Assembly (NCBI GenBank): GCA_025823825.1
Contig: GCA_025823825.1_4720.1
DNA from: a phage
Length of the DNA: 64,000 bases
Strand: one strand, 5' to 3'
The position numbers were made by a program, and so were the translations under genes. The notes under the pieces are model-generated. The model saw only the letters and a program-made list of their open reading frames with translations. It was not told where the DNA came from and ran no database searches. How positions within the stretch are numbered: position 1 is the stretch's first letter; every line of letters begins with the position of its first letter. This document shows, one piece after another, positions 10,559-14,776 of the stretch.

Positions 10559-11440
10559 TCAGTAACAGTTATAATGGGTTCCAAGCCGCTCCGGTTTTCT
10601 CAGAAGACTATCTTTAAGCGGTACGACGTCGATATCAACGTTTTCTGAATAATAACCATTAGAACTACCATACCAACGAATAACAACACATCCTTTTGCT
10701 GTACGAATATGGTAAAATGTCCATCGCGTACGTTTGCAAAAGTCGTCATCCTCGTCTCTTTCCTCGGTTCTTTCTTCAGCGCTAAGTATCTTCTCACCAA
10801 TAATGTCGTTAAGATCGCCATCGATGTCTTCAAGGTACACTTTTTCACAGCAATCTTGCTTATGGCAGAATTCAACAACGTTCCCATCGCCCCGATAGAA
10901 AAGAAGGGCAATGCTGTATTGTAGCTGTTCGGCCGTTAAGTCTGTCGCGCAATACAAACTTTGATCTTCGGTTATCACCAAGACATTGTTGATTACGTGT
11001 CCGGCAAGCGCTCCGATCTTATTTACCGTGATAATCGGACGAACGGGTTCAGGTTGAACGATCGGAATACGAACACAACCAATTAAGGCCATCCGTCCTT
11101 TCTTTGGTCTAACCGCAAGGTAAGGTGATTTTCTTGGGTGGTTATGCAGACGTATTTCTAATTCGTCAAATTTAATCCCGTATATACCTAAGAAACGATC
11201 GAACAACCGATGAAACTCATCTGTTGCTTCTTTCAACGTTATGGTGTCTACCGTGAGTTTATGTCCCCTGAACACCCGGGTTATATCGATAACGTCGAGT
11301 GTTTTAAAATGTATTTCCGTAAGGGGGTGATTTGTATTTTCCAGGTATGTAATGGTTCTTTGAACCGCGATTTTAGGTGACGCACCTTTAAAACGTTTCA
11401 GGTATTTAACACGATAGCGTGTATGATCTGATGTTAACAT
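10559..11440 (-). CDS. hypothetical protein
   Basis: ORF-track N-terminus reads through the upstream hairpin; start set at ATG 11440 (MLTSDHTRY) preceded by GGAGAGGAG. Confidence 0.5.
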   Translation of the reverse strand: MLTSDHTRYRVKYLKRFKGASPKIAVQRTITYLENTNHPLTEIHFKTLDVIDITRVFRGHKLTVDTITLKEATDEFHRLFDRFLGIYGIKFDELEIRLHNHPRKSPYLAVRPKKGRMALIGCVRIPIVQPEPVRPIITVNKIGALAGHVINNVLVITEDQSLYCATDLTAEQLQYSIALLFYRGDGNVVEFCHKQDCCEKVYLEDIDGDLNDIIGEKILSAEERTEERDEDDDFCKRTRWTFYHIRTAKGCVVIRWYGSSNGYYSENVDIDVVPLKDSLLRKPERLGTHYNCY

Positions 11441-11507
11441 TTTAATCTCCTCTCCCGACTTCAGAGAATTCTTAAAATCCGTTAGTTTTGATAGATGAGG
11501 TAAGACG

Positions 11508-11534
11508 GCATAAAAGCCTCCCGTAATGGGAGGC
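11508..11534 (-). terminator. hairpin GCCTCCC-GTAA-GGGAGGC followed on minus strand by TTTTATGCCG
   Basis: Inverted repeat seen directly; sits just downstream of the 11548 stop. Confidence 0.55.
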
Positions 11535-11547
11535 TTCATTAATCAGC

Positions 11548-12096
11548 TTATTTCACAAGAACAGCGAATTCGAGAACATGAATAGCTTCATCGTCCATCG
11601 GATTTGTCGTGGTATAACCAACGAAGCAATAGCCCATATCCGCGATAAACTCGCTAAGTTTATCGATGACTGATGCCCCGATACGATCGTTAACAGACAG
11701 GCGACATTTACGGGTTATGTTTTGCCCGCGAGGAACGCCAGCTAACACGGATAGGAAATGTACGATCCGGTTATTGGTTGCGAACTGCTTGAAATCATCG
11801 TAGTGCTTAAGGTCTTTCATCGCAGACTCTACCGTCATACGACGACCAGGCGACACATACTCAGAATAAGAATAAGCTGCAATCGTGCGGCGGTCTTCAG
11901 TGAGGTAAGTATTCCCTTCGGGATGATAACTCTCGACTGTTCCGTCTTCATAGGTGACGGTCACAACAGGTGCACCGTACTCGTCGCGACCGAAATCAAT
12001 TTTACATTTATCCGAAAGCGGTAGAACCGTGCAAGGTTTTGCGTTGTTCTCATCAGGGAGATCGTAACCACTCATCATTTTCAAGAACATAGACAT
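11548..12096 (-). CDS. hypothetical protein, tandem paralog family member A
   Basis: 182 aa; N-terminal ~80 aa similar to 12183-12716, C-terminal ~90 aa similar to 12793-13092. Confidence 0.55.
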   Translation of the reverse strand: MSMFLKMMSGYDLPDENNAKPCTVLPLSDKCKIDFGRDEYGAPVVTVTYEDGTVESYHPEGNTYLTEDRRTIAAYSYSEYVSPGRRMTVESAMKDLKHYDDFKQFATNNRIVHFLSVLAGVPRGQNITRKCRLSVNDRIGASVIDKLSEFIADMGYCFVGYTTTNPMDDEAIHVLEFAVLVK

Positions 12097-12182
12097 AATA
12101 GAACCTCATGATAATAGATAATAGAAATGATAGATAGTACAACAAATTGAGGGGGTATTATCCCACCCCCTCGCAGGGATTA

Positions 12183-12716
12183 CTACTTAACGACCACGAT
12201 GATTTTGCCACCCGCACCGGCGTAATATGCCGTTAATTCACCAGTAAACAACTCTTGTAAAAGACGATTTACGTTACTAACAAAGTTAGGATTGTCTGAT
12301 TTTACAAACTCGATATTGCGCGTTTGTTTTATATCACGATCGATTAAGCGTATTTCCAACAACGCACAAATAAGGCGATCGTCAAGTTTACCACTTGCAT
12401 CCAGCACTTCTCCATACTTCGTAGCACGGACGTCTGCATACATACGGTCAACATCATCCTTCCCAAAACCACAGGAATAGGCGTACGTTGCGATGGTATT
12501 ACCATTGTCCATCACATAAACGTTACCGCCTGGGTAATCGATGAATCGTTGATCCTTATCACCATGAGCGACGAACTCCAGTGTCGGTCTACCTAGTGAA
12601 TCGCGATTGAATTCGATTGTGGTCAAACGGTCAGGCACCACATGCAATGTAAACGGTTTCGCATTGTTACGATCGCTAGTATCGCAGTTAGCCATTACTT
12701 TTACAATAACACTCAT
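12183..12716 (-). CDS. hypothetical protein, tandem paralog family member B
   Basis: 177 aa; shares MS..K.M...D.NNAKP...IA.YAYS N-terminal block with member A. Confidence 0.55.
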   Translation of the reverse strand: MSVIVKVMANCDTSDRNNAKPFTLHVVPDRLTTIEFNRDSLGRPTLEFVAHGDKDQRFIDYPGGNVYVMDNGNTIATYAYSCGFGKDDVDRMYADVRATKYGEVLDASGKLDDRLICALLEIRLIDRDIKQTRNIEFVKSDNPNFVSNVNRLLQELFTGELTAYYAGAGGKIIVVVK

Positions 12717-12792
12717 GTTTATTCCTTAGTAGTCCTAGTAGTAGTAGTATTGAGGAATTTCACCTCATTAGATAATCAACTTTGGTAATGTT

Positions 12793-13092
12793 TTACTGAA
12801 ACAAGACATTAAATTCGACGAGATACCCATCGGATCTATCACCACGATATCTGTTGCAGAAAACACCGAATTTCATCAAGAACTCACATAACTCTTCGGC
12901 TTTGTATAGCGGAATACGATTTTCGTCGAGCAGGGGGCACTTATGGCTAACCCGCTCCGACGAATCAACGCAACACAAATAAAGAAGGAATCGAACAATA
13001 GCTCGGTTCTTAGTGAAGCTCTCGAATTCACCTGCAGTTCTGAACTCATCGAGGAGCTTTGTCGTTTTCTTCAATCGTTCACGATCGAGCAT
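12793..13092 (-). CDS. hypothetical protein, tandem paralog family member C (C-domain only)
   Basis: NRAIVRFLLYL...HKCPLLDENRI aligns to NNRIVHFLSVL...RKCRLSVNDRI of member A; start set at internal Met (MLDRERL). Confidence 0.45.
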   Translation of the reverse strand: MLDRERLKKTTKLLDEFRTAGEFESFTKNRAIVRFLLYLCCVDSSERVSHKCPLLDENRIPLYKAEELCEFLMKFGVFCNRYRGDRSDGYLVEFNVLFQ

Positions 13093-13155
13093 GTTAACCC
13101 CAATACGAGCATAACCCTCCTCCAACCCATCAGGGAAGGAGGAGGGAATATGCTG

Positions 13156-13470
13156 TTATTCTGTTTTCGGTGTTGAACCGTTCTTCTTGAAGTCGGATTC
13201 GTATTTCACGTTAGAATCGAGAACCTCACGAACGGTTTTATCCGTACAACCACGAGCGATGTATGCATTAAGATCATCACGTAATTTACGCATCGTTGTT
13301 TTATCCGCATCAGAAACATCTGACTTGGTAAGACGGAATGCGATTGCATCGCGAATTTTATTCAACGTTGCTGGGTTATTACGCTGTTCTGCAAATACCG
13401 CTTTGATGAATGTACCGCTATCTTTCGAAGCGACAGCTGCATCAAGAATCTCAATATGCTTTTCAGACAT
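13156..13470 (-). CDS. hypothetical protein
   Basis: 104 aa ORF. Confidence 0.4.
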   Translation of the reverse strand: MSEKHIEILDAAVASKDSGTFIKAVFAEQRNNPATLNKIRDAIAFRLTKSDVSDADKTTMRKLRDDLNAYIARGCTDKTVREVLDSNVKYESDFKKNGSTPKTE

Positions 13471-13521
13471 CTTCTTTCCTTTAATAAACGATCATCGTCA
13501 TATTCATTGCGCAGGATGCTA

Positions 13522-14751
13522 TCACTTCAGAAGCTTAGACACCGCCATGCTTCGCGCCATCGCAACGTCATACGCATCCATGATCGCGTCACCGATAGCG
13601 GTATGACGGATCAACGGAATACCCATGTCTGGATACTCTTTGGTGCCTAAGATGGATACCGGTTTGTCTTGATACGCGGCAATCATCGAACGAATATCCT
13701 GAATCTGGTTATAACGGCAGATTGGTTTGAAGCCTGCCTTACGGAACCAATGTTCTAATTGAGGCCAATCTGTTTCACCACGAGCAAGATAATAGAAGGT
13801 ATCCTTACCGTAGTATTCGGTCATCTCATCACGGATATTGTTAACAAATGCATTTACTGTAGCAATGGCTTCTTTATAGTCCATCACTCCGTCATGCTGA
13901 AAACAATAGTCACGCGCTTCCTTCGGTGCTTTGGTTTGCCACCATTCTACCGTGGACTTACTAATATCACCGCCATCAGCGATTTGACCATAAACGTCGG
14001 GGAAGATATCAATACGTGGGCCGTTAATAACAGATTCTGGATTGACTAGATCGAAGAACAAGATACCGATTTCCAGCAGTACCCCGTTCTTTTCCAGACT
14101 GAGATTCTCCACATCCAGGCAAAACGCAGGTTTCTCTACCGTTGAAAAATCAAAATATTCTTCGAGACGCGGCGTTGGTTCAGCAGCGAGAAACGTCTCA
14201 TGAATGAACTGGGCGAATGTCTTATTCATTGCTACTAAGTCAATACCCAATTTACTTAGCAGAGGTATAATTGCGGGGTCATTCTGCTGTATTACCACAC
14301 ACTCTTGGTTTTTGATACAACGACCAAGTGAGTAAAAAAGATGAACGATGTCTAACGGTTTGTACGGGGCCTCAAATGTTGTTCCCTGGAACGACTGAGC
14401 TAGCACTTTATGTGTTTCTTCACGATGATCTATCAGTTGGAAAATAGCACAGCGCAGATAATGCCGTAATGTTATCTCGTGAAGGTGTGATGTATCTTCC
14501 TGAAATAACGTCATGAAACCGTGATACGTATAATACGCACCTCTTCGAATTTCTTCGAGGAGTTCTTTGTCCCCATTTGTTTCCTCCGATGTTATCGGTT
14601 CCATTTGATCGAGGATAGTGCTGAGAAGGTCACTGCCGTGTACCTTAAACAGTTTTTCAACGTCAAGATTAGGTAATGTCGCGATTGCTGCGTACATTAA
14701 TGTTTCTGCGGGATTAAGTTCTTTATTGTCAATTGTGATGGTTAAAGCCAT
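13522..14751 (-). CDS. DEDDh-type 3'-5' exonuclease domain protein with N-terminal domain of unknown function
   Basis: FCLDVENLS (D-x-E) and HTAIGDAIMDAY (H-x-A-x-x-D-A) in C-terminal half; start at ATG 14751 with GAGG upstream. Confidence 0.6.
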   Translation of the reverse strand: MALTITIDNKELNPAETLMYAAIATLPNLDVEKLFKVHGSDLLSTILDQMEPITSEETNGDKELLEEIRRGAYYTYHGFMTLFQEDTSHLHEITLRHYLRCAIFQLIDHREETHKVLAQSFQGTTFEAPYKPLDIVHLFYSLGRCIKNQECVVIQQNDPAIIPLLSKLGIDLVAMNKTFAQFIHETFLAAEPTPRLEEYFDFSTVEKPAFCLDVENLSLEKNGVLLEIGILFFDLVNPESVINGPRIDIFPDVYGQIADGGDISKSTVEWWQTKAPKEARDYCFQHDGVMDYKEAIATVNAFVNNIRDEMTEYYGKDTFYYLARGETDWPQLEHWFRKAGFKPICRYNQIQDIRSMIAAYQDKPVSILGTKEYPDMGIPLIRHTAIGDAIMDAYDVAMARSMAVSKLLK

Positions 14752-14776
14752 TTTATTATACCTCATCGAAATCAAA

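Follow-up and report, generated by a model that had tools for sequence, protein, structure and literature searches.

Tandem paralogs with a widespread phage N-terminal domain and variable C-terminal halves in a Goslar-like phage

Introduction

Why does a phage carry a row of small related genes, single members of which can be lost in its relatives? This question is raised by a locus within a 64,000-nucleotide stretch of phage DNA (GenBank assembly GCA_025823825.1, contig GCA_025823825.1_4720.1; hereafter, the window), where three genes, here called gA, gB, and gC, lie in tandem. Region 11452-13600 of the window is 97.4% identical in DNA sequence to Escherichia phage vB_EcoM_Goslar (Goslar), a 237-kb nucleus-forming jumbo phage whose host is E. 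coli. A sequence-only reading of the window had described the locus as a tandem paralog family with domain shuffling, of a kind seen in fast-evolving accessory modules such as host-takeover or anti-defence genes.

All copies are functional genes under purifying selection. The explanation that we put forward, tentatively, is that the array encodes tandemly duplicated early, non-structural and individually dispensable accessory proteins, in which a constant N-terminal module is joined to a variable C-terminal one. Part of this was already known: the genes are public as hypothetical proteins, the N-terminal domain (N-domain) is a PHROG, and variable tandem accessory loci are familiar in large lytic phages. 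The dissection into domains, a fourth paralog (gD) found in relatives, the mechanism of copy loss and the mosaic of alleles are new, as are the breadth and the invariant residues of the N-domain family and the corrected, minus-strand gC.

Nucleus-forming phages are models of phage-host conflict, and for the majority of their early genes no role is known. The locus offers a compact and testable set, with three or four paralogs, natural deletions and discrete alleles of the C-domain.

The Array and Its Genes

The three open reading frames (ORFs) named by the sequence-only reading are present, all on the minus strand. The features of the array are as follows.

11548..12096, minus strand: gA, ORF of 182 amino acids (aa); Goslar gp143, 97% aa identity
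11851-12096, minus strand: N-domain of gA, residues 1-82
11551-11850, minus strand: C-domain of gA, residues 83-182
12183..12716, minus strand: gB, ORF of 177 aa; Goslar gp144
12462-12716, minus strand: N-domain of gB, residues 1-85
12186-12461, minus strand: C-terminal half (C-half) of gB, residues 86-177
12733-12750, minus strand: ACT repeat behind the hairpin of gC; the junction where gD is missing
12793..13092, minus strand: gC, 99 aa, C-domain-only paralog of gA, not annotated in Goslar

Over the DNA of gC, the Goslar annotation carries a plus-strand gene instead, gp145 (window 12943-13176, plus strand). When the window is compared with Goslar, five of the six differences in gC fall at third positions, and the codons changed on the minus strand comprise five synonymous and one non-synonymous; read as gp145, the changed codons comprise two synonymous and nine non-synonymous. 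Gene callers also report the 99-aa minus-strand gC in related contigs. Because the substitution pattern, the ratio of non-synonymous to synonymous substitution rates (dN/dS, see below) and the gene calls in relatives all point to the minus strand, gC is a real gene, and the Goslar annotation has one gene on the wrong strand. On the same grounds, gp145 looks mis-annotated.

Relationships Among the Paralogs

Both shared blocks on which the idea of a paralog family was based are significant by BLASTP and by profile comparison. Residues 1-78 of gA are 36% identical to residues 1-81 of gB (BLASTP E 1e-13), and the corresponding profiles match at 4e-15 with hhalign; N-domain profiles of gA, gB, and gD compared with each other give 4e-15 to 6e-11. 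Likewise, residues 101-155 of gA are 33% identical to residues 22-76 of gC (BLASTP E 4e-8), and the family profiles of the gA C-half and of gC match at 2e-11 over 84 columns. No similarity was detected between gB and gC, either by BLASTP or by hhalign (E 0.42), and control comparisons of N-half with C-half profiles by hhalign were non-significant. The arrangement previously proposed, with an N-domain plus C-domain, an N-domain plus another C-half and a C-domain alone, is therefore correct at the level of sequence. The two domains are also specific to the array within the window. Indeed, when the 64 kb are translated in six frames, a profile of 34 unrelated stand-alone N-domain proteins finds gA (8e-21), gB (3e-18) and nothing else, and a profile of the gA C-domain matches gA and gC only.

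The origin of the C-half of gB is less straightforward. It has no significant profile similarity to the C-halves of gA, gC, and gD (E 0.4-0.7), the value for the gA/gC C-domain profile being 0.67. The C-half of gD gives a borderline, colinear match with that of gA (E 0.078 over 77 columns). Structure prediction adds another line of evidence. The AlphaFold2 model of gA, built from the family alignment, is a confident two-domain model with a mean predicted local distance difference test score (pLDDT) of 89; its N-terminal part is all-beta, with seven short strands within residues 3-75, and its C-terminal part, an alpha/beta domain of about 100 residues (H, helix; E, strand), consists of H83-94, H99-106, H109-119, E127-132, H141-153, E157-163, and E173-181. 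For gB, the model is poorer as a whole (mean pLDDT 67), with a C-half that is mostly good and is composed of H86-97, H100-107, H113-124, E133-139, H143-156, E161-166, and E171-176. Thus, the two modelled C-halves have an identical order of elements, H-H-H-E-H-E-E, with near-equal spacing. When the viral structure library is searched with Foldseek, the gB model aligns best with Goslar gp143 (188 columns, E 1e-5), at a template modelling (TM) score of 0.35. This low score may reflect a differing orientation of the domains plus the poorly modelled N-half of gB.

Because the order of elements is the same in both predicted C-halves and Foldseek aligns the proteins over their full length, we favour a model in which a two-domain ancestor would have been duplicated and the C-halves would then have diverged fast, gC being a copy without the N-domain. 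A less probable alternative, which we nevertheless regard as the most serious one, is true shuffling inside the array, the C-half of gB, and perhaps that of gD, having come from an unrelated source and been fused to the N-domain. It would account for the lack of significant profile similarity described above and agrees with two further observations given below, namely that the wider family clearly joins the N-domain to unrelated C-terminal regions and that C-halves of gB are swapped as whole alleles between lineages. Against it stand the seven shared elements in the gA and gB models, the top rank of gp143 among the matches of gB, the weak colinearity of the gA and gD C-halves, the equal lengths of the genes and their tandem arrangement. 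Hence, of the domain shuffling put forward by the sequence-only reading, the part that stands is the joining of the N-domain to unrelated C-terminal regions in the wider family; inside the array, it is doubtful.

Variation in Copy Number

The array was compared among contigs of Goslar-like phages (loci L002-L019), and the number of genes varies between three and four. Most relatives have a four-gene array in the order gC-gD-gB-gA; the array types found are gC-gD-gB-gA, gC-gB-gA, and gD-gB-gA. The additional gene, gD, encodes a protein of 198-201 aa that is a full-length relative of gA (E 1e-17). It is missing in the window, in Goslar and at loci L010 and L002, and gC is missing in L016 and L017. 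None of the relatives compared lacks the array altogether.

The spacers point to the way in which gD disappeared. In the window (12733-12750) and in the matching spacers of L002-L019, the 3' hairpins of gC and gD are followed by a TACTACT(ACT) repeat. This repeat is local to the array and is not enriched elsewhere in the window. In the gC-gB spacer of the window, the 5' part of the gC-gD spacer known from relatives is joined, in TACTACT, to the 3' part of their gD-gB spacer. Locus L002, which is otherwise of the L003 type, has the same gD-deletion junction as the window, so that gD was lost by recombination in the short ACT repeat in at least two independent deletions. L016 still has an ORF remnant of gC and retains the ribosome-binding site of this gene as well as its final nine bases; gC was therefore deleted there.

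Selection and Exchange of Alleles

Pairwise dN/dS values were calculated from 10-11 genomes of relatives, for the array and for comparison genes.

gA: N-half 0.05, C-half 0.22
gB: N-half 0.06, C-half 0.35
gD: N-half 0.11, C-half 0.19
gC: 0.15
Comparison genes: thyA 0.05, capsid latch gene (Goslar gp146) 0.10, exonuclease 0.25, DUF7448 gene 0.18

Over the whole gene, every member of the array lies at 0.11-0.18, and constraint is 3-6 times weaker on the C-halves than on the N-halves.

Identity to the window changes abruptly along the array. In L005, gC is 94% identical, the N-half of gB 86%, its C-half 45%, and gA 93-96%; in L003, gC is 59% identical and the C-half of gA 58%, next to a latch gene at 98%. 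Moreover, the C-half of gB falls into three discrete allele classes. This mosaic, together with the discrete classes of gB, indicates that divergent alleles, including C-halves, are exchanged between phage lineages by recombination.

A Widespread Family of N-Terminal Domains

The earlier statement that no known domain is recognised in these proteins was borne out by the database searches. Pfam searches with the three proteins (E up to 1) returned nothing but sub-threshold noise, and none of 134 members of the N-domain family carries a Pfam domain. NCBIfam and PADLOC, the latter holding models of defence and not of anti-defence systems, gave nothing above noise for the three proteins, gD and wider members. 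Apart from a weak match to a G-box, discussed below, searches of the PDB found neither sequence nor structural similarity to the family. Word-indexed protein searches listed only close Goslar-like homologs among their matches, and no functional study was found in the literature on Goslar gp143 and gp144 or on gp34 of phage 201phi2-1.

More was learned from an exhaustive profile search, which covered 1.84 billion representative proteins: 137 proteins were found at E <=0.001, all but five of which match the N-domain only. The N-domain family forms 132 clusters at 50% identity. Usually the domain makes up the whole protein, with 69 clusters of <=100 aa, 16 of 101-130 aa, 36 of 131-250 aa and 11 longer ones, up to 481 aa; the longer members have varied C-terminal extensions. 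Nearly all clusters have a match that begins at residue 1-6, and for gA and gB it begins at residue 1; the few clusters with a later start look like mis-called start codons. Among 34 stand-alone members, eight columns are invariant (K, M, D, K, G, N, Y, and T). All eight residues are retained in gA and gB, and three of them are changed in the gD of relatives (M to I, D to I, and K to R). In gA, seven of the invariant positions are K6, M8, D15, K20, N62, Y64, and T71. The eight residues, six of which are polar or charged, may lie on one surface formed by strand 1, the loop between strands 1 and 2, and strands 6-7. Among 134 relatives, phrog_10337 is matched by 128 and phrog_10807 by 66; the match to phrog_10337 is at 1.9e-7 for gB and 0.0015 for gA. 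The protein gC has no match in PHROG, and the gA/gC C-domain is in no PHROG. In the search of 1.84 billion proteins, the only ones to show this C-domain were Goslar-like (P0003, P0126, P0127, and two fragments).

The N-domain occurs in several chimalliviruses, including Goslar, the Agricanvirus proteins gp198/gp201 (379 aa), Phabio gp463, 201phi2-1 gp34, Viktualia, and others. It is also present in the jumbo phages Proteus phage 10 and Salmonella SA002, and in 45-kb Acinetobacter myophages of the genus Obolenskvirus. One degenerate DNA pattern for the domain matches 17 viral contigs, which measure 6-317 kb; among 185,579 genomes of bacteria and archaea (one per species), the same pattern has a single true match, located on a 13-kb contig of a metagenome-assembled genome. 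Given this difference between viral contigs and cellular genomes, and the occurrence in Acinetobacter phages, the family is essentially restricted to phage (viral) sequences and is not limited to phages that form a nucleus. Profile comparison revealed no significant link between gA, gB, gC, or gD and the C-halves of distant two-domain members, namely Agricanvirus gp201, Phabio gp463, 201phi2-1 gp34, and the protein of Proteus phage 10. On the scale of the whole family, the N-domain is thus indeed joined to different partners.

Expression and Virion Content in Goslar

Published data on Goslar bear on whether gA and gB are parts of the virion. By liquid chromatography-tandem mass spectrometry (LC-MS/MS) of virions, gp143 was detected with 3 peptides (estimated 4-10 copies per virion) and gp144 with 2 peptides (estimated 1-3 copies per virion). 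Carry-over of chimallin in the same virion data amounts to 84-198 copies, far above both proteins. In the part of the source available, neither is listed among the 28 modelled virion proteins of Goslar. For 201phi2-1 gp34, there is no note of detection by virion mass spectrometry, though neighbouring genes have one.

RNA sequencing (RNA-seq) of Goslar at 30 min gives about 850-970 reads for gp143 and gp144. Upon chimallin knock-down, their normalised log2 fold change is about +0.1, and the genes for the major capsid protein, tail sheath and tail tube, listed alongside, drop by 4-5 log2 units; according to the RNA-seq authors, the knock-down transcriptome matches early infection. Both genes are transcribed even when the phage nucleus is missing. 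Because of the trace amounts in virions and the unchanged transcripts upon knock-down, gA and gB are expressed early-type proteins and not stoichiometric parts of the virion.

Possible Roles of the Array

The explanation given at the outset, a set of duplicated early accessory proteins, places the array probably at the phage-host interface. From the early-type transcription and the dispensability, we infer a possible link with host takeover or anti-defence. In such a scheme, the N-domain would be the constant working module, binding one conserved partner or ligand, and the C-domain would be the variable module, meeting a host factor that differs between strains. The array would then represent a small set of host-interaction or counter-defence variants.

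Several observations weigh against this explanation. Knock-down of chimallin also leaves the transcript of the capsid protein gp146 unchanged, so that early-type transcription is compatible with a role in the virion. Stand-alone N-domain genes of small phages are often neighbours of terminase, portal or capsid genes, which leaves room for a head-related role. The homology of the gB and gA C-halves rests on predicted secondary structure and on a Foldseek alignment of low TM score. Finally, the fast evolution attributed to the locus holds for the C-halves, which are less constrained and occur as discrete mosaic alleles; for the genes as a whole, there is no gene-wide positive selection (all dN/dS values below the 0.35 level in the 10-11 genomes), and neighbours such as the DUF7448 and exonuclease genes have diverged to the same extent.

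A bolder version of the host-interface explanation, to which we give rather little weight, is that the N-domain could be a new, widespread and phage-only binding module neutralising one conserved bacterial factor or signal, with a recombining C-domain that retargets or regulates it and with gC as a modulator or decoy of gA. Small phage anti-defence proteins (Tad, Acb, and similar) act as signal sponges or inhibitors. The array proteins resemble them by description, as they are small, restricted to phages yet spread over unrelated ones, early, dispensable and endowed with invariant polar residues; unlike them, the family has no sequence or structure match in the PDB. The conserved N-domain is common to many unrelated lytic phages, and its eight invariant residues are open to mutagenesis. 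If it does bind a host or immune factor, this would apply to about 130 clusters of phage proteins without assigned function.

A different possibility, which the data make quite unlikely, is that these are minor proteins associated with the head or with packaging, the N-domain targeting the procapsid or the packaging machinery and the C-domain being a cargo delivered with the DNA. The model for this is provided by the internal proteins IPI, IPII, and IPIII of T4, which are encoded at hypervariable loci by small tandem genes with a conserved N-terminus, a variable remainder and presence/absence variation, and among which at least IPI* is an anti-defence protein. Gene positions speak for such a role. 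In the Acinetobacter Obolenskvirus WCHABP12 (L020, 4001-4273), a stand-alone 90-aa member follows the terS, terL, portal and head morphogenesis genes. Among IMG/VR contigs, a stand-alone gene lies directly upstream of terS-terL-portal (L035, 7950-8252), and others are 2-5 kb upstream of terL (L026 and L031) or near the major head gene (L034). The array itself adjoins the latch gene gp146 in the window, and peptides of gp143 and gp144 are present in purified Goslar virions. However, the estimated 1-10 copies per virion are below the carry-over of chimallin and PhuZ, and neither protein appears among the 28 modelled ones in the portion of the source consulted. Their transcripts behave like those of early genes and unlike those of capsid or tail genes, and 201phi2-1 gp34 is without a virion mass spectrometry note although its neighbours have one. 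In T4, the targeting signal is a cleaved peptide of about 10 residues, and the internal proteins are abundant in heads and made late. By contrast, the N-terminus of the array proteins is a folded domain of 80 residues, predicted to be compact and carrying invariant polar residues rather than being a short cleavable signal; gA and gB leave only traces in virions, and their transcription is of the early type and not late with the head genes.

It is very unlikely that the proteins are components of the phage nucleus, such as import adaptors or factors associated with the shell of nucleus-forming phages. Two-domain forms do occur in the chimalliviruses (Goslar, Agricanvirus gp198/gp201, Phabio gp463, 201phi2-1 gp34, and Viktualia), but the same N-domain is found in 45-kb Acinetobacter myophages and in viral contigs of 6-190 kb, some lineages do without gC and others without gD although no relative is devoid of the array, and family members were not found in the literature searched. 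A role in nuclear import was dropped in view of the Acinetobacter phages. The least probable reading, in which the duplicates are in decay or have no function and gC is a truncated pseudogene, could invoke the missing N-domain of gC, the three changed invariant residues of gD and the absence of copies in some lineages, but it is largely refuted by the selection data (dN/dS 0.11-0.18 for every copy, gC included), by ORF lengths and start codons kept across 9 gC and 8 gD sequence variants, and by the transcription of the genes and the existence of gA and gB peptides.

Comparison With Related and Similar Proteins

The N-domain of gA and gB belongs to PHROG 10337/10807/3909, which are phage families without assigned function, PHROG 10807 being the 379-aa Agricanvirus form. 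Unlike these relatives, the tandem array with a C-domain-only copy is restricted to Goslar-like phages.

In the same phage, the chimallivirus proteins with a DUF7941 module (doi 10.64898/2026.04.21.720040) form, like the array, a multigene family with a conserved N-terminal module and varied C-terminal domains. They are abundant in the virion and carry carbohydrate-binding or hydrolase domains, whereas gA, gB, and gC are without Pfam match; DUF7941 itself was not matched in the array proteins by Pfam (E up to 1), assuming that the 2025 copy of Pfam contains the model.

Residues 32-68 of the gA family profile show a weak match to the beta-hairpin repeats in the G-box of CPAP/SAS-4 (TCP10_C; E 0.04, i-Evalue 0.44). 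Both are predicted or known beta-meanders with unrelated biology. The relationship was rejected as a resemblance between hairpin repeats, as it is not significant per domain and has no Pfam match.

Hairpins and Neighbouring Genes

The hairpins around the array are listed below.

11513..11537, minus strand: hairpin plus U-run after gA, 10-bp GC-rich stem, -19 kcal/mol, z -3.9; intrinsic-terminator-like
12149..12172, minus strand: hairpin plus T-rich tail after gB, 9-bp stem with 6 GC pairs, -21 kcal/mol, z -2.5; intrinsic-terminator-like
12751-12767, minus strand: weak hairpin after gC, 5-bp stem, z +0.7, folding no better than shuffles
13115-13146, minus strand: strong hairpin upstream of gC, -35 kcal/mol, z -5.1

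It had been proposed that each gene is followed by a hairpin. This is so for gA and gB, whose strong hairpins are both annotated as terminators in the Goslar record; the 5-bp stem behind gC does not qualify, and no T-run follows it. The strong hairpin at 13115-13146 sits between the stop codon of the 13156-13470 gene and the start of gC; it is the terminator of the capsid latch gene, which comes before gC, and does not belong to gC. No promoter motif common to the three genes is evident upstream of them, and a sigma-70 scan was below expectation. The repeat TACTACTAC was considered as a general promoter-like motif and discarded, with 13 occurrences in the window vs. 9.2 expected, which is no enrichment.

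On one side of the array, between gp142 and gA, there is a DUF7448 (PF24240) gene (10559-11539, minus strand). Goslar itself lacks it, and every other relative examined has it. As called, its first 33 codons overlap the terminator hairpin of gA; its true start is therefore probably the ATG near 11440, behind GGAGAGGAG. On the other side, the array adjoins a 104-aa gene (13156-13470, minus strand) that corresponds to Goslar gp146, named capsid "latch" protein in a 2026 Goslar cryo-EM preprint. Further upstream of the array, an Rv2179c-like 3'-5' exonuclease is encoded at 13522-14775 (minus strand); among relatives, its called length ranges from 344 to 440 aa and its identity goes down to 58% at the aa level, a variability on par with that of the array genes. 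Finally, Goslar-like genomes turn up as contigs of 235-249 kb in numerous assemblies that NCBI holds for isolates of Salmonella, E. coli, Shigella, and Enterobacter, which suggests a carrier state or pseudolysogeny, or contamination of the cultures.

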